From positions 1-64,000 of IMG/VR virus record IMGVR_UViG_3300018405_000014: DNA of 64,000 nucleotides; one strand, 5' to 3'. The position numbers and the translations under genes are program-made. The notes beneath the pieces are model-generated. The model did no database searches. It was not told where the DNA came from and worked only from the letters and a program-made list of their open reading frames with translations. This DNA comes from a virus (taxonomy: Duplodnaviria > Caudoviricetes). Shown here one piece after another: positions 23,420 to 38,983 of this stretch; within the stretch, counting starts at the first letter, position 1, and each line of letters opens with the position of its first letter.

Positions 23420-24994
23420 ATGAGCGTGCCACCCATTATTCAATATCCGCTCGACCTTACCGGAACGTCAGCGACAAACGCCATTGTAGGTGAAAGTCGG
23501 GACATTGCCAACCTCAACGAGCGGGTCTTCGTGCCCAAAGCCGGACCATTCTACACCGACAGCTTCGTCATTCGTAACGCCGAAACCGGTCAGCCCCTGA
23601 GGCCTGTGGATGACTATGTTCTGGCACAACCGTTTTCTCAAGCGTCGTTGCGCAGCGGCAAGGATGTTCAGTGCGCCGTTGTCCTGAAGACTTCTGTCCC
23701 CATCAGCGTTGAGATGGATTATCAGGTTGTCGGGGGCGAGTATTCCTGGAACCTGGCGGGCTTGGCCGACCTCATTGCCGAACTCGATCTGGATGACCGC
23801 CCTATCAAATGGGGTGCAGTTATTGGTCGACCGACCATGTATCCGCCAGCACCGCACATGCACGACATTGGCGACACCTACGGGTGGGAATACGTCGTGT
23901 GGCAGTTGGAGCGTGTGACGTATGCGATCCTCACAGGTGACGAGGCCTCTCACGAAGAGCTGCGCCAACAGATGCAGACGCTACATGCCCAGCAACAAGC
24001 GATCATCGATGCTCTGGATGCGCGGTTTGTAGGTCACACCAACGACAAAACCAACCCTCATGCCGTCACCAAGGCCCAGACGGGACTGGGTAGTGTCGAC
24101 AACTATCCGACAGCTAACGCCAGTGAGTCGCTGGCCGGGGTCGCCAACAACCGCTTCATGACACCTCTGGGAAGTGCATCGCTGGCAGACCGCATCGCCA
24201 CCGAGCGGGTCAGTGACCATGAAGCCAAGAAGACCAACCCGCACCAGGTAACCAAAGCGCAAGTCGGCCTAGGAAACGTGGATAACTACGGGACAGCCAC
24301 TCAGGCACAGGCCGAATCTGCATCGGTTACCGACAAGTTCATGACGCCTCAACGGACTTATCAAGCCATCATGATCCATGCGGGTGTTCTACTGGATGCC
24401 CACGTCAACAACAAGCAGAATCCGCACAGTGTCACCAAAGCACAGGTCGGGCTTGGAAGCGTCGACAACTATGCCACCGCCAGTCAGGCTGAAGCCCTGG
24501 CGGGTGTGGCCACCAACCGCTTCATGACACCCCAGCGAGTCAAACAATCGATTGACGTCCATGCCGGCAACCTGATCAATGCCCACGTCACCAACACCAG
24601 TAACCCACACCAAGTAACGAAGGCTCAGGTCGGTCTGAGTAACATCCCCAATGCCGTCACTCGCGAGCGAAGCCTTGACAGTAACACCACCCTGCTACTC
24701 GCTGGTGCAATGCGCGATCACCTTATTTCGGGTGACCACGACAACCGGTATGTTCGTCTGAACACTCAGCAGAACACCAGTATGCGGATCGTCAACGGTA
24801 CACTGCAGTCGTATGTCGGTGGTTACTGGCGTCAGGTCTGGCCGGCGGTGTGGAGTAACCACGTTGCACAGGGTTACAACGACCCCTACCTTGGAGAAGG
24901 TACTGGGGTGCAGCTGTTGTCAGCAGGCGGACGCCTGTACGCCACGGTCAACGGTAATTGGCAGCAGATCTGGCCTTCGCAGTGGGCGGATTAA
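23420..24994 (+). CDS. tail fibre protein A (paralogue of 36406-37839)
   Basis: YPLDLTG N-terminus, NPH/VTKAQVGLG repeats, duplicated C-terminal G.W.Q.WP..W motif. Confidence 0.8.
   Translation: MSVPPIIQYPLDLTGTSATNAIVGESRDIANLNERVFVPKAGPFYTDSFVIRNAETGQPLRPVDDYVLAQPFSQASLRSGKDVQCAVVLKTSVPISVEMDYQVVGGEYSWNLAGLADLIAELDLDDRPIKWGAVIGRPTMYPPAPHMHDIGDTYGWEYVVWQLERVTYAILTGDEASHEELRQQMQTLHAQQQAIIDALDARFVGHTNDKTNPHAVTKAQTGLGSVDNYPTANASESLAGVANNRFMTPLGSASLADRIATERVSDHEAKKTNPHQVTKAQVGLGNVDNYGTATQAQAESASVTDKFMTPQRTYQAIMIHAGVLLDAHVNNKQNPHSVTKAQVGLGSVDNYATASQAEALAGVATNRFMTPQRVKQSIDVHAGNLINAHVTNTSNPHQVTKAQVGLSNIPNAVTRERSLDSNTTLLLAGAMRDHLISGDHDNRYVRLNTQQNTSMRIVNGTLQSYVGGYWRQVWPAVWSNHVAQGYNDPYLGEGTGVQLLSAGGRLYATVNGNWQQIWPSQWAD
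23621..23672 (+). repeat. 52-bp exact direct repeat shared with 36607-36658 (fibre A/B)
   Basis: CTGGCACAACCGTTTTCTCAAGCGTCGTTGCGCAGCGGCAAGGATGTTCAGT occurs in both fibre genes. Confidence 0.85.
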
Positions 24995-25091: not shown

Positions 25092-25607
25092 ATGCTCCAG
25101 CGATTGGAGATGTTCAAATTTTCAGGAATCTGTGAAGATACCTTAGCGGTGGAGGATGTCATTGCCAGTGCCCATGTATACGAGCAGAACATGATCAAGG
25201 TGGTTCGCAACAATGCGTCTTATGTAGTCAATAACTTGAACGAATACCTTGAGCTTTCGACCTACCCGATTAAGATCGAGGGATATGAGCGATTCAATTC
25301 GGTCATGTTTCGCGAATGCAAGGCGCTGGCGTCCCACATGAAGCACCAGGGGTTTGTCAGTTGCCATTTGTTCTTGTCGCCCAAGGCCTCGGTAAGTTTT
25401 GCCATGCACACTGACCCTGACGATGTCGTTGTTCACATGGTCAAAGGGCGTAAGCTCTTTGAATCACCCGACGGTGTTCTAGAACTCAGTGAAGGTCAGT
25501 CGATCTACATCCCACGCAACTATCCGCACCGAGCAATCAACACCGAGGATTCTATCATGTTGAGTTTTGGGTTGGAATTGTTCACTGAGCAAAAATTATG
25601 GGCATGA
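25092..25607 (+). CDS. JmjC/cupin-4 (YcfD/ROX-like) Fe(II)/2OG oxygenase
   Basis: SFAMHTDPDDVVVHMVKGRK...GQSIYIPRNYPHRA: HxD...H facial triad in a ribosomal-oxygenase-like context. Confidence 0.8.
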   Translation: MLQRLEMFKFSGICEDTLAVEDVIASAHVYEQNMIKVVRNNASYVVNNLNEYLELSTYPIKIEGYERFNSVMFRECKALASHMKHQGFVSCHLFLSPKASVSFAMHTDPDDVVVHMVKGRKLFESPDGVLELSEGQSIYIPRNYPHRAINTEDSIMLSFGLELFTEQKLWA

Positions 25608-26638
25608 ACAAGACCATCTACATCAAGACCACGGGTACCTGCAATCTTGACTGTCATCATTGCTTCACCAACGGGAAGAACGGCGACAAGACGCAGTTTG
25701 ATCCGATGGTCACAGCTGACTGGGTCCGGTCATTTATGGCCAAGTATCCAGTAGGAACACACTACCACATGGAGTTTCATGGTGGAGAACCGTTTCTGGT
25801 GCCACTCGAAAAGCTTAAGGCTTTTGCCGATCAGTTCATCGACAACCCACATGTCTCGTTCTGTGCAAACAGTAACCTGACATTCAAGTTGAGGGAGGAG
25901 CATATTCTTTTTATGCTCGATTACTTCGACGGGTTTATCGGCACAAGCTGGGACCCATGGATTCGATGGGCGAACGATAAACAGTTCAACCTCTGGAAAA
26001 GTAACCTTGAGTTGCTCCGGAGTAGGGGTATAGGCATTGCGCTTAAAGCCTCGGTCAGCCGTGCTTTGCTGCAGATGACTCCCGACTGGTTCATCGATCA
26101 GATGGAAAGCTTTGCAGTTGAAGAAGTGTCACTCGAGCGCCTGACCTTCGATGGGAACGCAACCGCCAATCGGGATGTATTCCCCGACAATGAAGAGCAG
26201 GACAATTGGTACCTGGCCCTGTACCAACGCTATAAACAGCGAAAGCCAAGGGTCCGGATCAAGACCCTCGACATCATCGAGGAAAAACTCAAGAACAATA
26301 TCGTCAAGGTCGACACCAATTGCCGTAATTGTGAACAGAACCTTGTAACCATCAACTCAGACGGATCGCTCTCAGGTTGTCCAAACGCAGCCGCTAAGCT
26401 CCATCACGCCAAGATAGAAGACGGTGTGGAAGCTTTTCTGGTCTCGGACGGTCGGGTAACCGAGATCGCTACCGAATTGACTTGGGGTGATGGTTGCCTC
26501 GGATGCGATGTGTTTGATCTATGTGGCGGTGATTGCCACAGACTTCCATGGCAAGATGGGCGATGCGGTGGGTTGAAAAACACCCTGCGCTTCCTGTCTG
26601 GCCGAAACACTCACAGTAACCTGATTTTGAAGGTGTAA
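25604..26638 (+). CDS. radical SAM protein with SPASM-like C-terminal Cys cluster
   Basis: CNLDCHHC, FHGGEPFL, C..C...GC and CLGCDVFDLCGGDC; ATGA overlap with the upstream gene. Confidence 0.92.
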   Translation: MNKTIYIKTTGTCNLDCHHCFTNGKNGDKTQFDPMVTADWVRSFMAKYPVGTHYHMEFHGGEPFLVPLEKLKAFADQFIDNPHVSFCANSNLTFKLREEHILFMLDYFDGFIGTSWDPWIRWANDKQFNLWKSNLELLRSRGIGIALKASVSRALLQMTPDWFIDQMESFAVEEVSLERLTFDGNATANRDVFPDNEEQDNWYLALYQRYKQRKPRVRIKTLDIIEEKLKNNIVKVDTNCRNCEQNLVTINSDGSLSGCPNAAAKLHHAKIEDGVEAFLVSDGRVTEIATELTWGDGCLGCDVFDLCGGDCHRLPWQDGRCGGLKNTLRFLSGRNTHSNLILKV

Positions 26639-26639
26639 C

Positions 26640-27179
26640 ATGACTGAACAAATAACTCGTAACCGTCTAGCGGTCCAAGCCAACAGCCGGATTCGTGACC
26701 GCTGCAACAGTGGTATTTCGTGGGGCACCAACAGTTATCCGGCCAACTCGTTGTCGTGGTGGTTTGGTGGCACGACAGCAGGCCGTGGTGAGTCCTTGTC
26801 TCGCGATAGTTTCAACGCCGGCGATACCGATGCCAGCCAAGTCGTGGAGCGCCTGCGGTCATTCGCCAACATCTTTGCGGCTATCCGTCGGACGCGCATC
26901 GTCATTTACCGCACCCATCATCAACTCGGCAGTGAAGTGATCTATGATGGGACGGCGGTGGCACACACGGCGTACTCGGTGGGGGCGTTCGCCAACGGTG
27001 TGCCAGTATCTGCAGTTCGCAATGGCGTGACAATGGATCTCGGGATGCTGAACGATAGTATCGATGAACTGTACAGTGCCTACGTATCCAATTGCCGCAA
27101 CACCACCCTGGACCTGACCAACACGGTCTGTCATTCAAGCTGTCACAGTAACTGCCATACAGCCCGCGGTCGACGTTAA
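26640..27179 (+). CDS. putative substrate/precursor-like protein with C-terminal CHSSCHSNCH motif
   Basis: 179 aa ending VCHSSCHSNCHTARGRR; embedded among radical SAM genes. Confidence 0.7.
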   Translation: MTEQITRNRLAVQANSRIRDRCNSGISWGTNSYPANSLSWWFGGTTAGRGESLSRDSFNAGDTDASQVVERLRSFANIFAAIRRTRIVIYRTHHQLGSEVIYDGTAVAHTAYSVGAFANGVPVSAVRNGVTMDLGMLNDSIDELYSAYVSNCRNTTLDLTNTVCHSSCHSNCHTARGRR

Positions 27180-27194
27180 ACCAGGAGCAGCACC

Positions 27195-27917
27195 ATGGAA
27201 CATCAAGAAAAGAAAGTCATCGTTACTCCGGCACCCATTCCAATGGATCTCTTGCGGTTGAAGTTCACCGAAGATGTTCATTACGTAATCGACTACAGTG
27301 AAAGTAAGTTCAAGGGGAAGGTTCTGCTCACGTACCTGACCAACCTTAACCTGAACTGTGAGATCAAGTTTCCCGATCTCGAATCAGAGCTACAGGTGTT
27401 TAAAGAATATCTGTCTCTTCCAAGTATGGTGAATACGCCGCAGTTTGAAAGCATCATCATTCATCTGCTACTCGATATCATGGCCGTCCCCAATGCCCTG
27501 ACATTCGACCCAACTCAATTCGTCATCGAGAACGCAGAGGTTCTTTCCCGCTGGTTGACTAACGTCTCCATGCTACCGGCCTTCGCCCTACACTGCCACC
27601 CTAAGCTTAAGGATCAGGTAGGTAAGTACGAGGAGGTGGCGGACGATCTGCGAGGGATCAACTTCGTCAATCTGGTCAAGCATCCTGATTTCCCACTGCT
27701 CATTGATGAGATCCCGGAAAGCGACTGGTGCTGGAACCGGACTTTCTTTAACGAGCCGTGTTTTGCTGGTAAGAAGATGTTTGAGTTCTTCATGGATAAG
27801 AATAACCCTTACTTTATCTGTCTGCTGGCAATGGAAGATCAGCTCGAATCCGGTAGGTTCCTTGATGCCCTATCGTCTACAGTTTCCAACCTAGCTACTC
27901 TGCCCGAAGGAGTGTAG
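27195..27917 (+). CDS. hypothetical protein of the radical SAM cassette
   Basis: AGGAG SD; 240-aa ORF. Confidence 0.75.
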   Translation: MEHQEKKVIVTPAPIPMDLLRLKFTEDVHYVIDYSESKFKGKVLLTYLTNLNLNCEIKFPDLESELQVFKEYLSLPSMVNTPQFESIIIHLLLDIMAVPNALTFDPTQFVIENAEVLSRWLTNVSMLPAFALHCHPKLKDQVGKYEEVADDLRGINFVNLVKHPDFPLLIDEIPESDWCWNRTFFNEPCFAGKKMFEFFMDKNNPYFICLLAMEDQLESGRFLDALSSTVSNLATLPEGV

Positions 27918-27918
27918 T

Positions 27919-28983
27919 ATGTATCATTTTATCAACCGTGTCTATGTGGACACATCGCTACTGCTCGACCATGACGCAAAGCGAATGACCATCGGTAAAC
28001 AAATCGGGTATGAATACGCCAAGGTGAGTGAATTTGATCCAGAGGGCGGTGTCCAGCTGTTCTACGCTGAGTCTCTGGATGCTGTCGATCATAAGGCTTT
28101 CAAAGACGCGATGGTCCAAGCGGTATCCAGCGATGAGAAGACCACCATCTTCTGTGATTCCGATACGTACGTGCGCCTGTACGGTATGTTCATCAAGGCT
28201 CTTTTCCCCAATATCGACTTCGACACCTTCAAGTGGATCATGGTCTGTAAGAAAGCGATGTTCAACAGTTCGGTATCGTCACGCGGTGAACCCAGCGTCG
28301 ATGTCCTTTCTAAGCTGGTGATTAATGGGGCTGTAGTAAAGGCTGTCTACGACAGTGAAGAAGAACTTCAGGACATCATCGATGAGCTGGTCCGTGACAA
28401 TGCCGAAGAGCTTTCGCTTGAGTGGCAGATCATCCGACTTCGACTTGATGGAAAATACGGTAAGATCCCTCGGGTAACCAAGAACATCCTGCGCAAGATC
28501 GCACTGTCGAACGCACACGATGCTCTGGAAGTGTGGGCTCGTCATATCACGCGGCCAGAGAACTGGGATATGGCAGGTGCTGATATAGACACCTTGCTCA
28601 ACGGCCAGACTGTATTTGAAGGGTGCCTGAGGCTCCCTCATCTATCGTCTACGGTACTCATGCGCCCGGGTCTTTACGCCTACCGTCCTACCGATGAATG
28701 GCTCATGGGTATGCTCCGTGAAGCCATTAAGTTAATGACTCATCTTGAGGATGAGTCCTCGGCCAAGCGTGCTGCCAAGATTCTCGAGTTACTCGCCGAT
28801 ACCCGTCCCATGTCCGACCCTGCAAACTGCATGGATCGTATCCAGGTTATGTTCAACGGTCCGATGCGCATTGCTCTCGCTATGCGTGATAACGGTAAGT
28901 ACGACGAGAGCCTTATCAGGCTAATCCTTAGCCTCGACGACGATAAGCTTAAGGATATACTTGAAGGGGCTGCCTGGCGATGA
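27919..28983 (+). CDS. hypothetical protein of the radical SAM cassette
   Basis: 354-aa ORF tightly coupled to its neighbours. Confidence 0.75.
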   Translation: MYHFINRVYVDTSLLLDHDAKRMTIGKQIGYEYAKVSEFDPEGGVQLFYAESLDAVDHKAFKDAMVQAVSSDEKTTIFCDSDTYVRLYGMFIKALFPNIDFDTFKWIMVCKKAMFNSSVSSRGEPSVDVLSKLVINGAVVKAVYDSEEELQDIIDELVRDNAEELSLEWQIIRLRLDGKYGKIPRVTKNILRKIALSNAHDALEVWARHITRPENWDMAGADIDTLLNGQTVFEGCLRLPHLSSTVLMRPGLYAYRPTDEWLMGMLREAIKLMTHLEDESSAKRAAKILELLADTRPMSDPANCMDRIQVMFNGPMRIALAMRDNGKYDESLIRLILSLDDDKLKDILEGAAWR

Positions 28984-29978
28984 TAAAGATCCCACTGGTA
29001 GATATACTCCAGGAGAAGAAGGGCCGATTCAAAGAGGTGCACCTAATACTCTTTGAATTCTGTAACATGAGCTGTTCGTTTTGTCACCAGGACCATAGTT
29101 CCAAAGTGGGTGTCGATCACCACGCTATGTTCGATAAGGTACAGACCCTGATTGGGGTGTCGGACCCAAACGTTCCTGTCGTAGTGAACATCACCGGTGG
29201 GGAATTGTTCATGGACGATATCGCAGATGAGTACTTTGATACTTACTACGAGATCGGGTCAAGGATCATCGAGCATTTCACTGAAGTCAAATTAGTCTTT
29301 GGGACTAACCTGGTCTACGGCGACGCGGATCGCGTGAGATGTCTTGTGGAGCGCCTCAGGGAGAAATGTAGGGAAGTCTACCTGGCTACCTCTTACGACC
29401 CGGCAGGGCGCTTCACCGGCACTCAGAGAGAGGTGTTCTTCAGAAACCTCAACCAGCTGCATGATCTGGTAGATACTGTTAACGTAGTGCTCACCAAACA
29501 GAACATCCATCTCTTCCTTGACGGTAAGGAAGGTCCGGAGTTCAAGGACATGTGTGATAACTTCAGTGTCTACTTTGACCACTACATTCCAAGTCAGATG
29601 TACGAGTACATCCAACCGGATGAAGACTTGATTGGTCAACTGTACCTCAACATCAATGAACGGTACCCGAACTCCTATCCCATTCGGGACTGGAAGGAAA
29701 ACAAGTTCAATGAGACCACCTGCCGCTCGACTAAGATCATCAATAAAGATGGTGTAGTCAGCACCTGCTGGTCGGAGGCTGGTAAGGATGCCATCCTGGA
29801 TGAGGCAGAAGGTCTGCGCGCCAAGGACGCCGCAGAGGTTGCGTTCGTTGAACATTACGAATGCTTCAGTTGCGAGTTCTACTCTAGATGCGGCCTGCGT
29901 TGCTTCCTGCACGATACAGTACTGGGTGAGAAGTCGAAGGTCTGCTCGATAAAGGAAATGTTTAAAGCCATCTTGTAA
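28980..29978 (+). CDS. radical SAM protein
   Basis: CNMSCSFC, ITGGELF, C-terminal CFSCEFYSRCGLRC. Confidence 0.9.
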   Translation: MIKIPLVDILQEKKGRFKEVHLILFEFCNMSCSFCHQDHSSKVGVDHHAMFDKVQTLIGVSDPNVPVVVNITGGELFMDDIADEYFDTYYEIGSRIIEHFTEVKLVFGTNLVYGDADRVRCLVERLREKCREVYLATSYDPAGRFTGTQREVFFRNLNQLHDLVDTVNVVLTKQNIHLFLDGKEGPEFKDMCDNFSVYFDHYIPSQMYEYIQPDEDLIGQLYLNINERYPNSYPIRDWKENKFNETTCRSTKIINKDGVVSTCWSEAGKDAILDEAEGLRAKDAAEVAFVEHYECFSCEFYSRCGLRCFLHDTVLGEKSKVCSIKEMFKAIL

Positions 29979-29983
29979 CGCGG

Positions 29984-30016
29984 CATAAGGGCAGGGGCCA
30001 CGGCCCCTGCCCTATG
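29984..30016. terminator. hairpin dividing the cassette into two operons
   Basis: CATA-AGGGCAGGGGCC/GGCCCCTGCCC-TATG. Confidence 0.7.
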
Positions 30017-30163
30017 TCTGCTGTAAAGTCAGGCTGGCGTGATAACCTTTTTATTGTCTATAATAGACGGGATTAAGTTAAAACTTTACAGCCATTCTAC
30101 TATGACTTATTTCAAACCAGCCATTTAATGCCAGGCACATTGTCCTGGCAGGGGGATTAGAAA

Positions 30164-31252
30164 ATCGACCTCATAGTCAAGCCCACACAGCTTTGCAATT
30201 TCCGCTGCACGTTCTGCTCCAGTACGCATCTGAGTGAGGACGCTACAGCCACCGTATCCCTTGATCAAATTGAGCAGTTTATTAAGAGGTACCCTGAAAC
30301 CCGCACAATCATCATCAATGGTGGCGATCCCCTGATGATGCCTCCTCAGTATTACTGGGATATGATCGAAATACTGGATCGGTTGGACTCTGATGCGTCA
30401 ATTAGCTTTACCTCCAATCTCTGGCCTTTCTTTGTGAACCCCGAGAAATGGGAAAAGCTTTTTAACCATAGACGAATGGGTATCACCACGTCGTTTCAAT
30501 ATGGTGACAAGCGTTTGAAGGGGGATGGTACCCCACTGACTGAGTCTGAATTCATTGCGGTGAGTGACCTCTTCCTCGAGCGCGTCGGTTACCGGCCTGA
30601 ATTCATTGCGGTGATCGATAGGGACAATGCCCATACCGTCCTCGACACCGTGCGACTAGCTCGATACCTTGGAGTTGAAGCCAAAGTCAACTATGCCGTT
30701 GCTTCGGGTCCCGTGGTTGATAAAAAAGGGATCACCATGGGCAATGAAGATCAGATGTATACTCAAGCCGACATGTATAAGGCATACATCGAGATCTACG
30801 ATGCAGGACTGATGGAATGGGAATTCAATACCAAGCAGATGGTCAAGCGCATAAAGGGGCAACAAACGATCTGTCCACTGTCCCGTGATTGCGATGAGGG
30901 CATCCGTACGTTACAGCCTGGTAACGGATACTTCTCGTGTGGGGCTTTCGGCGATGACCTGAAATACCCAATCGACTTTCAACATGAGATGGCCGGAGGC
31001 TTCGTAACTCCCCTGCGCAACCAGGAAGAACTCTGGTCGATGAAAGAAGATTGCAATACATGCCCCATGTTCCTCATCTGCAATGGTTGTCGTAAAACAA
31101 TAACCGATACCAAGCGCCTTGGCCTGGTCGAACATCACTGTAAGACCATGAAGAGCATCGCCCCACGGATCATCGAGATGAACGGGATGCAGGACTACCT
31201 GACCCCCACCCCGTACGTGGACGAGTCTGTCCAACTCATTGCGAGAGGCTAA
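30164..31252 (+). CDS. radical SAM protein (true start upstream of the ORF track, non-canonical ATC)
   Basis: Frame extends 57 codons upstream of 30335: IDLIVKPTQLCNFRCTFCSS...INGGDPLMM; in-frame TAG at 30158; C-terminal CNTCPMFLICNGC. Confidence 0.85.
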   Translation: MDLIVKPTQLCNFRCTFCSSTHLSEDATATVSLDQIEQFIKRYPETRTIIINGGDPLMMPPQYYWDMIEILDRLDSDASISFTSNLWPFFVNPEKWEKLFNHRRMGITTSFQYGDKRLKGDGTPLTESEFIAVSDLFLERVGYRPEFIAVIDRDNAHTVLDTVRLARYLGVEAKVNYAVASGPVVDKKGITMGNEDQMYTQADMYKAYIEIYDAGLMEWEFNTKQMVKRIKGQQTICPLSRDCDEGIRTLQPGNGYFSCGAFGDDLKYPIDFQHEMAGGFVTPLRNQEELWSMKEDCNTCPMFLICNGCRKTITDTKRLGLVEHHCKTMKSIAPRIIEMNGMQDYLTPTPYVDESVQLIARG

Positions 31253-31311
31253 GTGATGCGGGCTGACAATCTGGCACTGGCAATTGCCATCATCATTTCG
31301 GAGGGTTTGTT

Positions 31312-32241
31312 TTGTCCAAGCCAAGAATAAACCTCAGTCTGAACCCCACGTACTATTGCAACTTTAGCTGTGACTTTTGTTACTTAACGACAGAACAGCT
31401 TAATGACCGGACCCTGTTACCAATCGAGGTCATCGTTGAGCGGGTGGATGAGTTACTTGACCACTTCGAGATAGGTCACGTTGACCTTTATGGCGGTGAG
31501 GTTCTACTCTTACCAGAGGAATATCTACTGGCCATAAAAGAGATATTCCTGTCGAGGGGGATAAATGACATTGTATTAGTCACTAACCTTTCTCATGTCC
31601 CCGATCTTGTTCACGACAGTGACTTCAAGATCTCGGTGTCCTATGACTTCTCGGCCAGGGAGAAGCATGAGAAGGTATTTGAGAACATCATGCTTCTGAG
31701 TAACAAGTTCGTGATGCTTACTCTAGCAAGTCGGGAATTTCTAGACAAGGTGACTCCTGACGAGTATGTCAACACTCTAGCTTCCCTTCCTCATCTATGG
31801 CATGCGGAGATAAAGCCATACAGCTCCAACCAGGCTAATGTTCAACCCGTGTCCTTTAAGGAATTTGAAGAGTTCGTCTGGCAGGTGATCAATCACCCCA
31901 ATCGTAATTTCACCTTCGAGAACGAATGGCAGTTAGAGGATGTGATCAGCGGGGAGCGCAATGCATTTAGTGACGATCACGTTTACATAACCCCTACGGG
32001 TGATCTTGCTGTCCTAGAATTCGACAGCCAGGATCGCGAATACTTCAAAGTAGTCGACGGGATATCCGGTTATTTGGAATGGTGTGAACAGGAGAAAGCG
32101 CGGGTCTCTATGAATGCGATCTGCAATGCCTGTCCCTATTACGGTAAGTGTCTCTCTGAACACTTGAGAGAGGTGGTGGCACTGGATGAATCCTGCAATG
32201 GGTTCCGTGGACTCATAGAGCGCTGGGAGAAACTGAAATGA
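31312..32241 (+). CDS. radical SAM protein (TTG start)
   Basis: CNFSCDFC, LYGGEV, C-terminal CNACPYYGKC; GGAGGG SD. Confidence 0.9.
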   Translation: MSKPRINLSLNPTYYCNFSCDFCYLTTEQLNDRTLLPIEVIVERVDELLDHFEIGHVDLYGGEVLLLPEEYLLAIKEIFLSRGINDIVLVTNLSHVPDLVHDSDFKISVSYDFSAREKHEKVFENIMLLSNKFVMLTLASREFLDKVTPDEYVNTLASLPHLWHAEIKPYSSNQANVQPVSFKEFEEFVWQVINHPNRNFTFENEWQLEDVISGERNAFSDDHVYITPTGDLAVLEFDSQDREYFKVVDGISGYLEWCEQEKARVSMNAICNACPYYGKCLSEHLREVVALDESCNGFRGLIERWEKLK

Positions 32242-33305
32242 TGACTGATCCTGCTACATTCACTGTGAACTTCAATCTGGAGATCACTGCCGGGTGCGGC
32301 TATAACTGTCTAGGATGTACAGTCGATAAGAATGGGGCGAATACCCAGCTCGAACCGGAACTAGGCGATCTTCTGCCCCTTCTGGAGGACATTAGATCGA
32401 AAGGCTGGCGCACACTCGAATTGAAAGTAGGGCCAACTGACCTGACCACTGCTGAGAACGGCTTTACCATCCTTGATGATCCTGTCTTCGGGAAGATAGT
32501 CAGCTACTTCAACTTGATCTCAATTAATCTGGCAATGTTGAATGACCATGGCCTTAAAAGGTTAGCCGACAAGCTTGAAGAATTGATCCCTGGCAAATAC
32601 CTGATGGTAGGTACCCCTGTCACCCTCAAGAACATGCTGAATAAGAAATACATGACGCAGTTGAGGGAACGATTTGCCCGCTTCAAGGGTATGTTAAAGA
32701 CCATTACATTCACTCGCATTTACATGACCATCAACGTCGATTCGGATTCCATCCGCCAATTCAGTGACGAGACCTTCGATGCAATCAGCGACAGTAACCT
32801 GACAGAGTTTGATTCGGTAGAATTCGTTTTCACCGATGTGAGGCGTGGCTTTGATAACCTCATGGTTGCCGAACAGTTCAAGCGGGTGACGCGCCAGTTT
32901 TCATCGTTCGTACTTGATCGTGAAAAACGTGTGGCGGGCAGTCATGTCTTCACTCGACTGGTACCTCGTCCACAGGAGGGGTTCGAGTTCACTTACCGTA
33001 CAGGTGACCTCTATACAACGATAACCATGGTTGAAACGCTGACTATCTTTGACGATAAGTACAAACTCCCAAAACCATGGACATTCGAGTCACTGATTGA
33101 CTTCAGGGAAAACCAGTACGCTGATACACTGATAAAGTATTCAGGGCATCCTGAATGTGGCGATTGTTGTTACCTTGACAACTGCTCTCGAAATAACATC
33201 CCGACGCTGATGGAAGAGGCCAGCAGTGATAGGTGCCTGTTCGACATCAAGAACAGGTGGGAACCTGCCTGTCACCTCGAGAATCCGGAAAGGAATATCA
33301 CATGA
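32238..33305 (+). CDS. divergent radical-SAM-like protein 1
   Basis: CGYNCLGC; VGPTD in place of GGE; C-terminal CGDCCYLDNC. Confidence 0.75.
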   Translation: MMTDPATFTVNFNLEITAGCGYNCLGCTVDKNGANTQLEPELGDLLPLLEDIRSKGWRTLELKVGPTDLTTAENGFTILDDPVFGKIVSYFNLISINLAMLNDHGLKRLADKLEELIPGKYLMVGTPVTLKNMLNKKYMTQLRERFARFKGMLKTITFTRIYMTINVDSDSIRQFSDETFDAISDSNLTEFDSVEFVFTDVRRGFDNLMVAEQFKRVTRQFSSFVLDREKRVAGSHVFTRLVPRPQEGFEFTYRTGDLYTTITMVETLTIFDDKYKLPKPWTFESLIDFRENQYADTLIKYSGHPECGDCCYLDNCSRNNIPTLMEEASSDRCLFDIKNRWEPACHLENPERNIT

Positions 33306-34381
33306 AAAAACCTATAGTACAGCATCGCCAGCGCCTGGAGATTGCCCTCGATATTCTAAAGGGATGTGGTCACTCGTGTAGTGGCTGCATGATCGATAAG
33401 GAACTCGGCGGTAGTGCAGAAGACATTCCCCAACTGTACGCTCTAATTCAAGAGATGGTGGCTGATGGTGGGTACGTTGCATTTGACCTTGGTGTAGGAC
33501 CGACTGACTACATGTCTTCGGATAACACCAGTGTCCTCATGGACAACCCAACATTTAGAACCATGGCGCAGATGTTTGACCAGGTTACGTTCAACGCCGC
33601 CTTCCTCGAGAAAGACCTGGACAAGTACGCTAAAATGTGCGAAGAGATCGACGAGGCCTGTCCCAACAAGGCGATTCGATTTCTGATGCCTGCTGCCCCC
33701 GACTTCTTCAAAACAGATAAGTTCGGGACCATGATTGCCAGTAAGCTCCAATACGTCAAAGATACGTTTAAGAAAGCCTACTTAAATGAAGCAGGGTTTG
33801 TGGTCAACTGTACCTCAGACACTGTAAGCGAGAACTTTGACGAATTGATGAAGAACGGCTTTGCAGTGGAGTTCCCCACTGAGAAAGACGATATCCTCAA
33901 TATCCCATATGGTCGGCTACCTTACAAGGATATTATGGTTGGCCAGAACATCAGACGGATGTCCCACCGTATCAGTCAGTTCTACTCTGCTCTCTGTGGT
34001 GTGGATGAGCGCCGCAGGAACCCTGATCTCTGTTACCACACTGGCACTATGGTAAACCTCTGGTACACAGGCGGTAAGCTCTACTGGGTACCTTTCTTAA
34101 AAGATGATTGTCCGTTCCTTGAAGAAGAATTTGTCATCCCTAAGCCCTGGAACATGGAGAATGTTCTAAGTGTTCGTCAGAAAGCGATGAATGAGGCGAT
34201 CGAGTATCTGGAAGGTACTGACTGCATGACATGTGTTTACATGAGCAGTTGTACCGAGAAAGGGATCATTAATATCATGAAACGGTTAGCAATCAAAGAC
34301 TGTATGGTAGGGCTTCAGTATGTCAGAGATGATTCCCAATCGGGGGTTCAACATAACCTTGGAGATCCTTCAAGGGTGTAA
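33302..34381 (+). CDS. divergent radical-SAM-like protein 2
   Basis: Start MKKPIV at 33302; CGHSCSGC; VGPTD; CMTCVYMSSC. Confidence 0.75.
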   Translation: MKKPIVQHRQRLEIALDILKGCGHSCSGCMIDKELGGSAEDIPQLYALIQEMVADGGYVAFDLGVGPTDYMSSDNTSVLMDNPTFRTMAQMFDQVTFNAAFLEKDLDKYAKMCEEIDEACPNKAIRFLMPAAPDFFKTDKFGTMIASKLQYVKDTFKKAYLNEAGFVVNCTSDTVSENFDELMKNGFAVEFPTEKDDILNIPYGRLPYKDIMVGQNIRRMSHRISQFYSALCGVDERRRNPDLCYHTGTMVNLWYTGGKLYWVPFLKDDCPFLEEEFVIPKPWNMENVLSVRQKAMNEAIEYLEGTDCMTCVYMSSCTEKGIINIMKRLAIKDCMVGLQYVRDDSQSGVQHNLGDPSRV

Positions 34382-35333
34382 GTACAGTTGTGTTGGCTGT
34401 ATGGTCGATAAGGAACTTGATCCCGGTCCGTTCGATGAAGATGGACCGGCACTGCTCTCCTTAGTCGATGAGATGAAGGACAGTGGATATGAGCTCAATG
34501 AGTTCACAGTTGGTCCGGTTGATGTTATCGCGTCGAGTGCTGGTACCGCTATCCTGGACCATCCATTGATACAGTCCTTGGCAGATCGATACTGTGGTAT
34601 GGTACTGCCGCTCGCCCTGCTGCAAGAGACAGGCCTTAAGGAACTGTGCGAGAAACTAAACTCCCTATTAAAAGGGAAGCGGTTGAAAGTTGCCACTCCC
34701 TTCCCCGTGAGAAGTATCCGAAATAGAAAACACATCGACCTAATCAAAGACCGGGTGCAGTATATCGTTGATCATCTACCAGATGTCAAGTTCGAGTTAC
34801 TCTACCTCACCGTGAATATGTCAGACGACCCGACTGAACACCTTAGCGATCAACTCGATAAGGAAATTCATGCGTTGGATTTCGGCGTCCGTAAACTGGT
34901 GGAATATGTCTTCCCCCATGCTCGTAAGGGTTTCGATGACCTTGTCAACAGACAGGCATTCTTAAGAGCGTTTACAGGCTTCACTGAGGTCATCCGAGAA
35001 AACCGGTCGCGGTACCTGATAAAGCCTTTGGATGATTCCCTGGAACTCACCTATAGGAACGGGTACCTATATTACACCCCAACACTAATTGAGAAGTTTC
35101 CTCTATTCTCAGATCAATATAGCATTGAACGACCATGGACACGTCATGGGGTCGAAGGACTGGAAGGGAATCTCTATATCGACGAACTTACTCGTCGAGT
35201 TGAGCACGTTACCTGCGGCGATTGTATCCATATCGATCGTTGCGCACGAGGTGACATCCATCTGATAATGACCCATTTGAATTACGACGAATGCCTGGTC
35301 GGGATGAAGAACGATTGGACTATGCCATTATGA
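34320..35333 (+). CDS. divergent radical-SAM-like protein 3
   Basis: CKYSCVGC; VGPVD; CGDCIHIDRC. Confidence 0.75.
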   Translation: MSEMIPNRGFNITLEILQGCKYSCVGCMVDKELDPGPFDEDGPALLSLVDEMKDSGYELNEFTVGPVDVIASSAGTAILDHPLIQSLADRYCGMVLPLALLQETGLKELCEKLNSLLKGKRLKVATPFPVRSIRNRKHIDLIKDRVQYIVDHLPDVKFELLYLTVNMSDDPTEHLSDQLDKEIHALDFGVRKLVEYVFPHARKGFDDLVNRQAFLRAFTGFTEVIRENRSRYLIKPLDDSLELTYRNGYLYYTPTLIEKFPLFSDQYSIERPWTRHGVEGLEGNLYIDELTRRVEHVTCGDCIHIDRCARGDIHLIMTHLNYDECLVGMKNDWTMPL

Positions 35334-35758
35334 CTCCACCTTATAAAGATTTTCAGCGTGTCTACAATCAGTTAATTACGGATCATCCAGATGACTTCAG
35401 TAACATGGAGATCATTGAAGACGATGAGTTGGTGGACAATGCCCTGTCTTATTTCAAGCACGCTACGTTCCCCCTTATCTACCGTAGTAAGAGTTACGCG
35501 GTCGCCATTATCTACGCGCATAAACTCAATGAAATCTACGGTATCGATAAGTACGATATACTGAATGACCCTGATTTATTCCTGGGTCAGGACATGTATT
35601 TCGTACCGTATAGTCAAGACCCTGAGACATACGACCGAATCATGGAACGTCTAATGACCATCCCAAATTGGATTGAGTCAGGGTGGGCCCCTCAGACCGT
35701 TAAGTATTGTCTACTTGAATGTACTGAGGAAGGCATTGCTTCACTTAGCGAGGTGTAA
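35330..35758 (+). CDS. hypothetical protein of the radical SAM cassette
   Basis: ATGA-coupled start MTPPYK at 35330. Confidence 0.7.
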   Translation: MTPPYKDFQRVYNQLITDHPDDFSNMEIIEDDELVDNALSYFKHATFPLIYRSKSYAVAIIYAHKLNEIYGIDKYDILNDPDLFLGQDMYFVPYSQDPETYDRIMERLMTIPNWIESGWAPQTVKYCLLECTEEGIASLSEV

Positions 35759-35759
35759 T

Positions 35760-36320
35760 GTGGAAGTCTTTGAACTCTGGAAGACCCCGATTGTACGCAT
35801 CAATGTTGCGGATCGGTTCAACATGGCAGACTGGACCGATGAGGTGTTCGCACTATACAGCATGACTGGTGGGGAGGACAGCCGCCAGCGCTGCATCGAT
35901 AAAGATTTGTTTCCAGTCATCCTCAGTATGCGCGATGAGGTGATCACTCCGGCAGTGAAACAATTCTGCCTAGATCACTTCAATTACAAGGTTGGGAACT
36001 TCTACGTCGACACCAATGGCAAGTGGATTGTTGAGGGTGAAGGTCTGTATCCACATTACCATCCCGGTTCGGTTGTCTCGGCAATTTGCTACCCAGGTGA
36101 CTCGGTAAATGGCATGACCATGTTCGACCCGAAAGGGAATGCATGTCGTGGTTACCCAAAACCTATGCGGAACAGTGCACTATTCAAAAACTTTACACTA
36201 CAACCCAAGCAAGGGGACATCTATTTGTTCCCGAGTTATGTGCAGCACAGCGTAGCCCACGTCACCGAGGACTTGCGTCTGTCGTTACTGCACGAATACT
36301 ACATCATCGAGGACCTTTAG
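35760..36320 (+). CDS. 2OG-Fe(II) oxygenase (phage TIGR02466-like)
   Basis: YPHYHPGSVVSAICYP...DP...PKQGDIYLFPSYVQHSV...R.S; GTG start after GAGGTG. Confidence 0.8.
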   Translation: MEVFELWKTPIVRINVADRFNMADWTDEVFALYSMTGGEDSRQRCIDKDLFPVILSMRDEVITPAVKQFCLDHFNYKVGNFYVDTNGKWIVEGEGLYPHYHPGSVVSAICYPGDSVNGMTMFDPKGNACRGYPKPMRNSALFKNFTLQPKQGDIYLFPSYVQHSVAHVTEDLRLSLLHEYYIIEDL

Positions 36321-36405
36321 CCATCGATGAGGGCGTCGCCTTGCGTGGTCTCCCTCGATCTTCTGCTCTCTGGGCGGAAGATCACTTACCTGCTTGGAGT
36401 TCACA

Positions 36406-37839
36406 ATGTCAATTCCACCAATTATTCAATATCCCTTGGATCTCACTGGCACCTCGCCAACGAACCACATTGTTGGGGAAGTCCGTGATATCCTGACCGA
36501 TGCCAATCGGGTCTTTATTCCGTTGGCCGGTCCGTTTTATGCCGACAGTTTCACCATCCTCGACAACGAAACCGGTATGCCGCTACGCCCTGTGGATGAT
36601 TATATCCTGGCACAACCGTTTTCTCAAGCGTCGTTGCGCAGCGGCAAGGATGTTCAGTCGGCGGTCGTGCTTCGTGTATCAGCGCCGATCAGTGTCAAGC
36701 TTGACTACCGTGTAGTCGGTGGTGAGTATTCCTGGAACCTCGATGCGTTGCAGGACCTGATCACTCAGTTGGATCTGGATGACCGCCCTATCAAATGGGG
36801 TTCTGTTCTGGGTCGTCCAACAGCCTATCCAGCAGCCCCTCACATCCATGACATCGGTGATACCTTTGGCTGGGAATATGTCGTCTGGCAACTTGAGCGC
36901 ATCACTCAAGCGATCATGGTGGGCGATGAAGCCTCGCATGAAGAGATCCGTCAGCAAATCCGGATTGTTGAAGAGCAGCTTATTTCGCTCATTGGCAGTT
37001 TGGACAATCGACTGGTCACGCACGTTAATGACAAAACCAACCCCCATGCCACGACCAAAGCACAGGTCGGGCTTGGAAGCGTCGACAACTATGCCACAGC
37101 CACGGCAGCTGAAGCCCTGGCGGGTCTGGTAAACAACCGCTTCATGACCCCAGCGCTGGCCAACACTCTGGCACAACGCATTGCAGCCGAACACGTAGCA
37201 GACCATGAGGCCAAGAAGACCAACCCCCATGCGGTTACTAAGGCGCAAGTGGGTCTGGGTAATGTGGACAATTACCTCACGGCTACCCAAGCACAGGCCA
37301 CTAATGGCACCGCGAACGACAAGTTCATGACGCCCTTGAGGACCAAGGAAGCGATCAATGCCATCGCCGGGAATTTGCTGCAGGCGCACATCAACAACAC
37401 CAGTAACCCACACTCTACGACCAAAGCACAGGTCGGCTTGGGTAATGTGGACAATTACAGCACCGCCACCGCCGAACAGGGTATTTCCACTACGATCTCC
37501 GATAAGTTCATGACGCCTCAACGGACTTATCAGGCCATCATGTCGCACGCCGGAAATGCCCTGAACAGCCACATCGGAAATCTGAACAACCCACACCAGA
37601 CCACCGCAGCACAAGTGGGCGCATACACCACAAGTCAGACCGACACCCTGCTGTCCAGGAAATTGGGTTCGGCTGAGACAGCGGTCAATGCGAATCGTCT
37701 GGAAAACACCACCCGTGCATCAATCCTGTCGGATGCTTACGCAGCTGTCGGAAGCATGGGTAAGCGCAACGTGTTCATCTCCACGGTCGATCCAACCGGC
37801 TCTCAAGGTGCGGTAGGTGATATCTGGCTGACTTACTGA
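36406..37839 (+). CDS. tail fibre protein B (paralogue of 23420-24994)
   Basis: MSIPPIIQYPLDLTG N-terminus nearly identical to fibre A; NPH repeats; C-terminal FISTVDP....GDIWLTY. Confidence 0.8.
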   Translation: MSIPPIIQYPLDLTGTSPTNHIVGEVRDILTDANRVFIPLAGPFYADSFTILDNETGMPLRPVDDYILAQPFSQASLRSGKDVQSAVVLRVSAPISVKLDYRVVGGEYSWNLDALQDLITQLDLDDRPIKWGSVLGRPTAYPAAPHIHDIGDTFGWEYVVWQLERITQAIMVGDEASHEEIRQQIRIVEEQLISLIGSLDNRLVTHVNDKTNPHATTKAQVGLGSVDNYATATAAEALAGLVNNRFMTPALANTLAQRIAAEHVADHEAKKTNPHAVTKAQVGLGNVDNYLTATQAQATNGTANDKFMTPLRTKEAINAIAGNLLQAHINNTSNPHSTTKAQVGLGNVDNYSTATAEQGISTTISDKFMTPQRTYQAIMSHAGNALNSHIGNLNNPHQTTAAQVGAYTTSQTDTLLSRKLGSAETAVNANRLENTTRASILSDAYAAVGSMGKRNVFISTVDPTGSQGAVGDIWLTY

Positions 37840-37849
37840 GGAAGCTGAT

Positions 37850-38983
37850 ATGCCTATTGACATGAAGATAGGTCCATCGACCTGGGCCAGGACAAAGCAA
37901 CCGCATGTGAAGGTGTCTGACTCGAGCTGGGCGCCGTTGAAACGCGCGCTGGTGAAAACAACTGCAGGCTGGAAGGAAGTCTGGCCATCGGAAATGGTTT
38001 ACACCCACACCGGTGTTGGTTATAACCTGAACATCTACAACTGTTTCGGTCAACCCAATTCGCCTGGGAAGTACGTGTTTGTTAACAACGGCTACATTGG
38101 TTCAGATACTACCGATCAATGGGCCTTGGCGACAGGTGTGTTCCCGGCAGGTTCAACTGTGGTCATCATCAACAATGGCCTGATCATTGGACGGGGTGGT
38201 CACGGTGCATCCTTCCATAGCTATGGAATGAGTTCATCGATCAGTCAGGCCGGCCCTGGCGGCCCTGGACTTAACCTCCAGACACCCGTCACTATCCAGA
38301 ACAATGGGGTTATCGCGGGTGGTGGTGGTGGTGGCGGTGCCAGTGGAGACTTCGGCGGGAAAACACGTTGGAACTTCCGAGGGGGTGGCGGTGCAGGCAT
38401 TGAGCCAGGTGTAGGTGGTATCCATACCTGGGGTAATACGCCACCTTCCCCGGCCACTTATGAATTGGGAGGTATCGCCAGAAGTGGCAGTGATGGACAT
38501 GGTGGCAACGCAGGTGTAAATGGACGAACTGCAACCATGGTTGTCAACAACGACCACTCGATGATGACGATTGGTGCACCTGCTGGTATCTCCATTGGCA
38601 GTACTGGTTTTATTCAGGCCGGTTCTACCGGTTTGGATTCCACCCGTGTTAAAGGTCGACAGGTTGGGGGTACGGGACGTACTCGTATACGGGTTGCCAG
38701 TATCGATGGTCGAGGCCAATACGGTGATACCCTCACCGTGAACCTGACCTATGACGGCCCGGCTGGTACCATCGGCGGATCATGGATTTCAGGCGGTTCC
38801 ATGATCTCGGTCGGGCGCATCGGAAACACCTTCAGATTTACCGCAACAGGGTACGAAAGCGGGTATTCGAGAAACTTCTGGCGCAGTGGGACCATGCGGT
38901 TCACCCTGACAACTGGGGAAGGCAGTGACTACCAGGATGTGTACATCCGAGTAGGTGATGGCGGCTACTTTGAACTTTACTAA
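37850..38983 (+). CDS. glycine-rich tail-fibre adhesin (T-even gp38-like)
   Basis: Trp-rich N-terminus (GWKEVWP), IINNGLIIGRGG.G, GPGGPGL, IQNNGVIAGGGGGGG, GGGGAG glycine-rich motifs; follows fibre B. Confidence 0.75.
   Translation: MPIDMKIGPSTWARTKQPHVKVSDSSWAPLKRALVKTTAGWKEVWPSEMVYTHTGVGYNLNIYNCFGQPNSPGKYVFVNNGYIGSDTTDQWALATGVFPAGSTVVIINNGLIIGRGGHGASFHSYGMSSSISQAGPGGPGLNLQTPVTIQNNGVIAGGGGGGGASGDFGGKTRWNFRGGGGAGIEPGVGGIHTWGNTPPSPATYELGGIARSGSDGHGGNAGVNGRTATMVVNNDHSMMTIGAPAGISIGSTGFIQAGSTGLDSTRVKGRQVGGTGRTRIRVASIDGRGQYGDTLTVNLTYDGPAGTIGGSWISGGSMISVGRIGNTFRFTATGYESGYSRNFWRSGTMRFTLTTGEGSDYQDVYIRVGDGGYFELY

Follow-up and report, generated by a model that had tools for sequence, protein, structure and literature searches.

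The window analysed here (64,000 nucleotides, positions 1 to 64,000 of the IMG/VR record IMGVR_UViG_3300018405_000014, a virus record of 116,699 bases with an estimated completeness of 44%) belongs to a jumbo phage and contains, between positions 25092 and 36320, a cassette of 13 genes (g1 to g13; Table 1). These encode four radical S-adenosylmethionine (rSAM) enzymes (g2, g6, g7, g8), three divergent paralogues of rSAM type (g9 to g11), two putative oxygenases (g1, g13), three further proteins (g4, g5, g12) and a small protein, g3, that ends in a peculiar Cys/His motif and is hereafter called the CH-tail protein. The cassette is one cohesive, ancient module and travels with tail-fibre genes; in the window it directly follows two tail-fibre-like genes, tfA and tfB. 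As a finding the module is real, widespread and unexplained, and it is best filed under rSAM-dependent maturation of proteins, attached to the fibre loci of phages. That it serves, in several steps, for the dedicated maturation of a fibre-associated protein at its C-terminus is a proposal to which we give even chances. An original prediction, made from the sequence letters without database searches, had described the stretch as a cassette for the maturation of a product resembling peptides made by the ribosome and modified after translation (RiPPs), and had suggested that a virion or receptor-binding component is modified by it.

Conservation of the module

A peptide-pattern scan of IMG/VR yielded 250 stretches, 81 of which encode a relative; 80 loci were kept, and 83 loci enter the counts given below. 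Genes in these loci were labelled by the best phmmer match (E<=1e-3) of open reading frames (ORFs) of at least 50 aa to the proteins of the window; many of the loci end at contig ends, and near-identical contigs are included in the counts. An ORF ending in three CH units plus at most eight residues is part of the cassette in 80 loci out of 83, the exceptions (L016, L021 and L051) possessing g3 homologues with other endings. It is accompanied by g6 (73 loci), g8 (66), g7 (64), g2 (61), g12 (60), g4 (56), the cupin gene g1 (53), the 2-oxoglutarate (2OG) oxygenase gene g13 (37) and g5 (26). The reverse test, starting from g12, gave the same picture: relatives of g12 are encoded in 296 IMG/VR stretches (80 loci kept), and among the 36 loci with full 10-kb flanks a CH-tail ORF is found in 34 and at least three rSAM-like ORFs in all 36. 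One of the two missing CH-tail genes, that of L118 (RSL2), lies just outside the stretch; in L165 none was found in the stretch. Since the same gene set recurs in more than 100 independent contigs, the cassette is not a chance assemblage. The core of the module consists of the CH-tail protein, the rSAM groups g2, g6, g7 and g8, and g12; it is usually joined by g4, the cupin and the 2OG oxygenase, and sometimes by one to five enzymes of the g9-11 class.

Two layouts can be distinguished. Type 1 has the order cupin, g2, CH-tail gene, g4, (g5), g6, g7, g8, g12 and 2OG oxygenase; type 2 starts with two CH-tail genes and five genes of the g9-11 class, followed by g6, g12, g8 and g7 on the other strand. 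The cassette of the window is of type 1 with three genes of the g9-11 class added. Both layouts, about 18 kb apart, occur together on a 151-kb IMG/VR contig (L041, L071), which carries three CH-tail genes and more than ten genes of rSAM type.

Concerning cultured phages, g2 matched 16 of 50,697 phage records in a tblastn search. The closest relative is Pseudomonas phage pPa_SNUABM_DT01 (hereafter DT01; 265 kb), with 76% amino-acid identity in g2, followed at 36-38% identity by Ralstonia phages of the RSL2/RSF1 type, Burkholderia phages FLC6, FLC8 and S13, Agrobacterium phage Atu_ph07, which possesses a shorter version of the cassette, and Sinorhizobium phage Phosso; a Thermus phage gave a weak match. 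A megablast search of the phage isolates with the whole cassette found no match at the nucleotide level. The module is furthermore present in nine contigs from prokaryotic assemblies, five of which are labelled Bdellovibrionota (L085, L086, L087, L088 and L091). In the Bdellovibrio contig L091, three fibre-like ORFs bearing a Peptidase_S74 domain lie directly upstream of the cassette.

The C-terminal motif of the CH-tail protein

The protein g3 shares 48, 24 and 19% identical residues with its positional counterparts in DT01, RSL2 and Atu_ph07, respectively, and all four end in C-H-(S/T)-S-C-H-x-S-C-H-x-x-R-(G/S)-R-R-stop. In the family as a whole, the last 16 residues, (C-H-x-[S/N/A])x3-R-x-R-R, are essentially invariant, while the rest of the protein falls below 25% identity. 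An alignment of 49 of the about 145 sequences, otherwise 19-80% identical, keeps C164, H165, S167, C168, H169, C172, H173, R176, R178 and R179 without exception (L001-L003 were excluded from the family alignments). A degenerate DNA pattern found the motif once in the 116.7-kb record.

A profile search of 1.84 billion cluster representatives returned 835 proteins at E<=1e-3, of which 512 reach E<=1e-10 and 129 reach E<=1e-30. Among 208 family proteins, 193 have three CH units, seven have two, six have four, one has five and one has thirteen; 148 end in RGRR, 22 in RSRR and about 25 in other forms of R-x-R-R. The fourth position of the CH unit is occupied by S (450 units), N (103) or A (45), and the third is free. 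The same tail is borne by at least two unrelated N-terminal domains, one with the signature I-x-W-G-T-N, to which g3 of the window belongs, and one with the signature LRTFDKT, found in proteins of 126-140 aa that are encoded in tandem pairs. In the protein P0099 (227 aa), the array has grown to 13 CH units with SNV(P/V) linkers between them, followed by the usual RGRR. No Pfam or NCBIfam family was found for g3, and a tblastn search of the phage isolates with a 128-aa CH-tail protein of type 2 gave no match.

Variable carriers that bear a short invariant peptide, and whose genes always stand amid those of several non-redundant radical enzymes of peptide- or protein-modifying type, are the usual mark of a dedicated substrate; this argues for the tail of g3 as the substrate of the cassette enzymes, and we regard the assignment as probable. 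The chemistry would then take place on side chains of the tail, because Cys, His and a small residue at position 4 are fixed, residue 3 is free and the end is basic. The apparent need for a small residue at position 4 and any residue at position 3 resembles enzyme-recognised three-residue motifs, as judged from the names of NCBIfam families. The original prediction had named this gene (26640-27179) as a small Cys/His-motif protein to be co-expressed with each enzyme, and the invariant tail together with the linkage to the cassette gives it the hallmarks of a dedicated substrate.

The enzymes

The motif CxxxCxxC is located near the N-terminus of all seven enzymes (first Cys at position 15 in g2, 28 in g6, 11 in g7, 16 in g8, 20 in g9, 22 in g10 and 20 in g11). 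In g2, g6, g7 and g8 it is combined with GGE or GGD (GGEP, GGE, NGGD) and a C-terminal cluster Cx2Cx5C(x2-3C), and all four fall into phrog_1802, 'radical SAM domain-containing protein' (2.9e-53 to 5.3e-28). With respect to Pfam Radical_SAM (PF04055, cutoff 29.5 bits), g8 scores above the cutoff (43.3 bits) and g2 (26.3) and g6 (17.7) below it; g7, read from its ATG, gives no match.

In 35 sequences of the g2 family, C15, C19, C22, GGEP62, C242, C245, C261, C300x2C303x5C309x3C313 and C323 are invariant. By this pattern g2 carries the full set of SPASM cysteines, and two auxiliary clusters are predicted, although the score against the NCBIfam SPASM model TIGR04085 narrowly misses the cutoff (25.1 versus 27 bits). 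The best relative of solved structure is the anaerobic sulfatase-maturating enzyme anSME (4k37, 1.2e-9), to which both the core and the SPASM stretch align; further ones are 8vpo (an uncharacterised rSAM protein), CteB (5wgg, 3.5e-9), the rSAM domain of ChlB, YydG, MoaA and SuiB. Among NCBIfam families the best matches are likewise peptide maturases, among them YhhB (1.1e-11), PapB (5.5e-11, over the full length), FxsB (1.2e-10), anSME (39.8 bits, cutoff 349.45) and AmcB. Because the Cys motif begins at residue 15, g2 has no N-terminal domain for leader recognition. Matches of g6 to QueE-like proteins are weak and confined to the region of the Cys motif.

In g7 the CxxxCxxC motif lies in frame upstream of the first ATG (30335) and downstream of an in-frame stop (30158-30160), and no ATG, GTG or TTG is situated between this stop and the motif, so that g7 has to start at a non-canonical codon. 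This is probably ATC 30164, which lies eight bases after GGGGGA and at the place of which the DT01 orthologue starts with TTG. L009 has the same short ATG-started g7 ORF (306 aa); most relatives have ORFs of 362 aa.

In the divergent paralogues g9 to g11, GGE is replaced by GP(T/V)D, and Cx2Cx5C is retained. From g8 to g11 this cluster is accompanied by one more Cys, a set that would be enough for one auxiliary cluster. None of g9, g10 and g11 has a Pfam match of its own. Of 44 members of the class as a whole, 11 give a PF04055 match at E<=0.01 (the best at 1.5e-4), and the class aligns to the g2 family by hhalign with a probability of 54% (E 1.3e-4) in the N-terminal core; the sole PDB match of the class is Tes (0.28). 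Its assignment to the rSAM enzymes is thus moderately supported by these comparisons.

A quick IQ-TREE search with 77 rows (ten evenly spaced members per class plus the seven enzymes of the window, labelled by best-hit assignment) groups g2, g6, g7 and g8 in one clade each, with long stems and a support of 99 in the SH-like approximate likelihood ratio test, and the g9-11 class in a separate clade (support 100). Judged by this tree, the four are distinct rSAM orthologue groups older than the spread of the module, a result that speaks for four different reactions.

The two oxygenases are recognised by Pfam models above the cutoffs. The first, g1, matches JmjC_2 (8.4e-9, 35.5 bits, cutoff 22; only the C-terminal third of the model is covered) and Cupin_2 (1.1e-7). 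In 33 sequences of its family H106-x-D108...H146 and K121 are invariant, and PDB profiles retrieve cupin_2 proteins and, more weakly, the histidyl hydroxylase MINA53 (4e-6), YxbC/asparaginyl hydroxylase and a Cupin_4 protein. The second, g13, matches 2OG-FeII_Oxy_5 (PF13759; 4.8e-12, 46.6 bits, cutoff 27) and, below the cutoff, TIGR02466 (1.3e-5). The inventory of the original prediction, i.e., four rSAM enzymes with CxxxCxxC, GG(E/D) and C-terminal Cys clusters, three divergent CxxxCxxC paralogues, a JmjC-like and a 2OG-Fe(II) oxygenase, is thereby borne out, and in keeping with its reference to the modification of peptides or proteins, the enzymes, by the PDB and NCBIfam relatives of g2, resemble SPASM rSAM enzymes of that kind and not nucleotide enzymes.

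Of the remaining proteins, g4 has no Pfam or PDB match; its gene always adjoins the CH-tail gene in type-1 cassettes. For g12, no lead was obtained from PDB, Pfam, NCBIfam or the Atlas. A Pfam match is also lacking for g5, the family profile of which gives a weak rhodanese-like (thiosulfate sulfurtransferase) match (1.5e-3, about 45 residues). Two ideas on g5 were rejected: it is not rSAM-like and hence no degenerate rSAM enzyme, and for a sulfur donor the evidence is too weak.

Association with tail-fibre genes

In 51 of 77 loci with a called upstream gene, a conserved domain of about 135 aa (jackhmmer) forms the C-terminus of the protein encoded directly upstream of the cassette. The proteins that carry it range from 239 to 3,192 aa, some with collagen repeats, and in two of six carriers scanned it matches Pfam Peptidase_G2 (IMC autoproteolytic cleavage domain) above the cutoff. 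Fibres of the tfA/tfB kind take this place in 18 further loci that are DT01- or RSL2-like and include the lineage of the window. Matches to PHROG families annotated as tail fibre, tail or virion structural protein were obtained for nine of the ten upstream proteins scanned. The link to tail fibres, for which the original prediction had asked for a gene-neighbourhood analysis, thus holds across unrelated fibre types and lineages. The idea that the C-terminal domain of the fibres is a specific docking site or substrate was rejected, because the domain matches a general autoproteolytic chaperone domain.

The CH-tail protein itself is also connected with fibres. In type-2 loci the CH-tail gene starts 0-2 nt from the stop of a giant fibre gene. 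In the RSL2-like contig L021, the g3 homologue (P0200, 315 aa), which is in syntenic position, has CH repeats that pass directly into a Peptidase_S74 'chaperone of endosialidase' domain (1.5e-11). A second fusion, P0115 (453 aa), carries a Gly_rich_2 domain (7e-11) at its N-terminus.

Downstream of the cassette, fibres bearing the S74 domain are found in several viral loci, just as the cassette is followed by tfC in the window. The placement between tail-fibre genes, as originally described, applies to the window, where fibres flank the cassette on both sides, and to a few relatives; DT01 and RSL2, which share the gene order baseplate spike, two fibre/virion proteins, cupin, rSAM gene and so on, have no fibre gene 3' of the cassette. 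The tfB orthologue of RSL2 is annotated as 'virion structural protein'.

Organization of the locus in the window

All 13 ORFs that fill the cassette lie on the + strand and are tightly packed. The co-orientation stated in the original prediction is correct, but ATGA overlaps, by which it considered most genes coupled, exist at only five of the 12 junctions; the remaining ones are mostly short overlaps or gaps of 1-15 nt. Larger gaps follow g6 (185 nt) and g7 (59 nt). The former contains, directly 3' of g6, an inverted repeat of 11 bp (29989-30012), which lacks a following T run and was for this reason not called by the terminator scan. A comparable hairpin is found at the same place in DT01 (L001, about 20503-20530), and the repeat may constitute a transcript boundary or an RNA stability element within the cassette. 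The numbers of sigma-70 promoter and terminator hits did not exceed those expected from shuffled sequence. The starts of g10, g12 and g13 are probably ATG 33302, ATG 35330 and GTG 35760, respectively; read from its first ATG, a provisional start, g11 overlaps g10 by 62 nt (34320-34381).

Table 1. Features of the cassette and of its flanks, with positions in the window
Feature	Position	Strand	Evidence
tfA, tail-fibre-like, 799 aa	20952..23351	+	phrog_2163 2.1e-136; phrog_13857 'tail protein' 8.9e-113; orthologues 5' of cassette in 18/83 loci
tfB, tail-fibre-like, 524 aa, directly 5' of cassette	23420..24994	+	phrog_2163 5.3e-129
g1, small cupin / JmjC-like Fe(II) oxygenase	25092..25607	+	Pfam, invariant residues, PDB profiles
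g2, rSAM with SPASM-type C-terminal Cys clusters	25598..26638	+	motifs, PDB and PHROG matches
g3, CH-tail protein, 179 aa, proposed substrate	26640..27179	+	C-terminal motif, synteny
C-terminal motif of g3, CHSS-CHSN-CHTA-RGRR	27129..27176	+	alignment
g4, unknown core protein, 240 aa	27195..27917	+	phrog_20767 3.5e-33
g5, unknown accessory protein, 354 aa	27919..28983	+	in 26/83 loci
g6, rSAM/SPASM-like	28980..29978	+	CNMSCSFC at 28, GGE73, Cx2Cx5Cx3C at 295; phrog_1802 2.8e-32
GC-rich inverted repeat, gap after g6	29989..30012	.	read from sequence
g7, rSAM/SPASM-like, probable ATC start	30164..31252	+	CNFRCTFC; phrog_1802 5.3e-28
g8, rSAM, one auxiliary-cluster motif (twitch-like)	31312..32241	+	Pfam Radical_SAM; Cx2Cx5C at 271
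g9, divergent rSAM-like paralogue	32238..33305	+	CGYNCLGC, GPTD, Cx2Cx5C; phrog_31457 1e-12
g10, divergent rSAM-like paralogue	33302..34381	+	same motif set as g9
g11, divergent rSAM-like paralogue	34320..35333	+	CKYSCVGC, GPVD, Cx2Cx5C; phrog_31457 4.6e-4
g12, unknown universal core protein, 142 aa	35330..35758	+	phrog_20737 8.9e-40
g13, 2OG-Fe(II) oxygenase	35760..36320	+	Pfam 2OG-FeII_Oxy_5
tfC, third fibre paralogue	36394..37839	+	phrog_2163 5.4e-129
Gp38-like fibre adhesin	37850..38983	+	Pfam GP38 1.2e-6, 28.9 bits (cutoff 25)

A transglycosylase-like gene is situated downstream of tfC and the Gp38-like adhesin. Compared with DT01, the window has an extra fibre paralogue (with an N-terminus like that of tfB) and the Gp38-like adhesin between the cassette and this gene; in L119 and L120, a fibre gene is also found 3' of the cassette.

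Proposed function

In the maturation system proposed here, g3 would be made together with the late fibre proteins, and its invariant (C-H-x-[S/N/A])x3-RxRR end would serve as the substrate. Each rSAM enzyme would install one site-specific radical modification, candidates being His-to-C-beta cross-links of the three-residue type, Cys thioethers and Cys/Ser oxidation of the anSME type, and the cupin and the 2OG oxygenase would hydroxylate His, Arg or nearby residues. The modified end would be rigid and possibly metal-binding. It would probably stay on the protein, because no protease gene was recognised in the cassette, and it would act at the tail fibre or together with it, serving as a tip, an adhesin partner or a stabiliser; the synteny with fibres and the fusions make this role our best guess.

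Described enzymes offer points of comparison. Like g2, anSME has no leader-binding domain; it acts on a short Cys/Ser motif of a folded protein, and in the last CH unit with its following Arg (C-H-x-S-R) the C...R spacing presumably equals that of the sulfatase motif; in contrast to anSME, several rSAM enzymes would act here on one substrate, and no sulfatase gene was recognised in the cassette. The thioether-forming SPASM enzymes on peptides or proteins, to which QhpD belongs, share with g2 the use of a SPASM-type rSAM enzyme on Cys-rich motifs (CteB/SCIFF, PapB); they differ in that g2 scores below their curated cutoffs, the motif contains no acidic acceptor residues and oxygenases are present in the cassette. 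Concerning the triceptide maturases (YhhB, FxsB, GrrM, AmcB) and the His-C2 cross-linkers HtkB and HaaB, the H-x-[S/N/A] of g3 would fit the aromatic-X-X motif three times, and a link from HisC2 to LysC-beta is reported in the available text of PMC11499958. Unlike the substrates of these systems, proteins of the g3 type have 126-315 aa and an invariant Cys before every His, and the cross-link is hypothetical.

A more far-reaching version of this proposal, which we regard as doubtful, is that phages of many lineages and, apparently, predators of the Bdellovibrio type possess a fibre-associated protein with an rSAM-built, cross-linked Cys/His end-piece, made in at least four non-redundant rSAM steps plus hydroxylations, which would be protein-borne, similar to a cofactor or metallophore, and would engage or penetrate the envelope of the prey.

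Several observations weigh against the maturation of a fibre-associated protein. The upstream gene has no fibre domain in 26 of the 77 loci (18 of these have tfA/tfB), and no recognised fibre gene lies directly upstream in, e.g., L027-L029, L036, L039 and L058. In the window, g3 is parted from the fibre gene by g1 and g2, and a Pfam scan found no IMC domain in the window's own fibres. The Atlas model of g3 is of low confidence (predicted local distance difference test 0.31) and gave no usable lead; a PDB profile search likewise retrieved no relative, so that a fibre fold of g3 would be conjectural. A word-index search for longer fused forms of the CH tail found none, which is weak evidence. 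The scores of g2 against the peptide maturases are about ten-fold below the cutoffs (YhhB 44.3 versus 445, FxsB 41 versus 370, AmcB 35.5 versus 425). The chemistry of the cassette is wholly inferred from sequence. In the HXS system treated below, the nearest precedent by analogy, a protein with HxS repeats matured by rSAM enzymes can act on DNA entry and not as a structural part. Finally, FabH-like and AMP-binding genes flank the copy in the Bdellovibrionaceae assembly L087, pointing to a cellular context, so that the module is not strictly viral; it may serve predatory bacteria too, or the contigs may be mis-binned phage.

Related systems and alternative explanations

The closest described system is the bacterial antiphage system HXS. 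According to the available text of PMC13128918, the rSAM enzymes HxsB and HxsC together with the small HxsD mature HxsA, the HxS-repeat effector, with a shift of +8 Da on SHRSS, and mature HxsA blocks the entry of phage DNA, probably via electrostatic DNA binding. The cassette would share with HXS the maturation of a whole protein, not of a short released peptide, by rSAM enzymes and one or more small helpers, at short His-x-Ser-containing repeats in a basic context, and a biology that concerns phage entry into the host. HXS is bacterial, comprises two rSAM enzymes and is marked by five HxS repeats, by N-terminal processing and by a peptidoglycan-binding domain, whereas the cassette has four to nine rSAM-type enzymes plus oxygenases, C-H-x-S three times at the extreme C-terminus with RxRR, and is encoded by phages beside fibre genes.

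In the main rival reading, the matured CH-tail protein might act in the manner of HXS at DNA entry, binding DNA or the ejection channel, in superinfection exclusion or as a helper or counter-measure against HXS-type gatekeeping of the host. We consider this improbable. The entry block exerted by the HXS effector (PMC13128918, as far as its text is available), the H-x-S contained in the C-H-x-S unit, the basic tail and weak matches of g2 to HxsB (5.9e-5) and of g6 to HxsC (0.002) would agree with it, but these scores are far below the cutoffs (g2 22 bits, cutoff 370; g6 17 bits, cutoff 267.9). No match to HxsA or HxsD was obtained for g3, g4 and g12, which gave no NCBIfam or Pfam family at E<=0.1, and a Pfam scan found no peptidoglycan-binding domain in g3. 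The conserved place behind fibre genes and the fusion with a fibre chaperone point to the virion, and four to nine enzymes are present instead of two. The original statement that no characterised system of this kind is known has to be qualified, HXS being a characterised analogue; the cassette itself falls short of HXS in all these comparisons.

About equally improbable is that the CH motif binds a metal or an Fe-S cluster in an accessory or scaffold protein and that the enzymes modify something else, e.g., the neighbouring fibres. Three Cys and three His at fixed spacing make a plausible metal site, the 13 CH units of P0099 look like a metal-binding ladder, and the neighbours that recur constantly are fibre genes; the use of His-bound metal ions is known from fibres and spikes of phages. 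However, these neighbouring fibres come from unrelated families, and their sole shared candidate is the chaperone domain, which is autoproteolytic by its Pfam description. The CH tail is the only invariant peptide in the module, and its pattern at positions 4 and 3 has the above-mentioned resemblance to enzyme-recognised motifs.

Still less credible is a true RiPP or cofactor, i.e., the modification, cleavage and release of the C-terminal 16 residues as an antibiotic, metallophore or redox cofactor aiding the infected cell. An invariant end on a variable carrier resembles precursors of the cofactor type, such as PqqA and MftA, and many oxidative enzymes are present, but scans with Pfam, PHROGs and NCBIfam recognised no gene for a protease, transporter or immunity protein in the cassette, and synteny and fibre-chaperone fusion speak against release. 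Because no protease was recognised among the 13 genes and the motif ends proteins of 126-315 aa with conserved domains of their own, RiPP maturation in the strict sense of a released peptide is unlikely; the original prediction had spoken of a RiPP-like cassette. Finally, a role of the genes in auxiliary metabolism or in modifying nucleic acids (hypermodification of DNA, chemistry of the queuosine type, 'DNA repair/host metabolism'), of which the available text of the DT01 paper speaks generically and with which the weak QueE-like matches of g6 in the Cys-motif region alone would agree, is extremely improbable, as partner genes of a nucleotide pathway are missing, the best relatives modify proteins or peptides, and the cassette is strictly tied to the CH-tail protein and fibre genes.

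Parts of the module have been recorded before. In the available texts of the genome reports, the annotations of the cassette are listed and left unexplained for FLC6 (PMC8066314), phiRP12/RP31 (PMC5468394) and S13 (PMC11898562). Twelve rSAM genes are given for a T4-like marine genome (PMC5332604), and large phages with up to a dozen rSAM genes are noted without explanation (PMC5332604 and PMC8541153, in their available parts). For pelagimyophages, rSAM cassettes are described in the host recognition cluster (PMC7029224, available text), and these may represent the same module; in the accessible portion of a survey of jumbo phages, the word 'radical' is absent (PMC7824862). Our literature search found no paper explaining the cassette or the tail motif.

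Implications

Four to nine radical enzymes for one tail of 16 residues would constitute a new layer in the building of the host-recognition apparatus of phages. Proteolysis, chaperones and occasional glycosylation are, to our knowledge, generally held to be the only means by which virion proteins mature; if the rSAM-built Cys/His end-piece is real, it would be the first case of natural-product-type radical chemistry on a structural component of the virion. The module is carried by hundreds of viral contigs, among them the isolates DT01, RSL2/RSF1, FLC6/8, S13, Atu_ph07 and Phosso, and would account for those large phages that have up to a dozen rSAM genes. It would furthermore supply a new family of enzymes that modify proteins site-specifically at a short, defined tag, and it represents a testable counterpart to the bacterial HXS system, testable now in several cultured phages.

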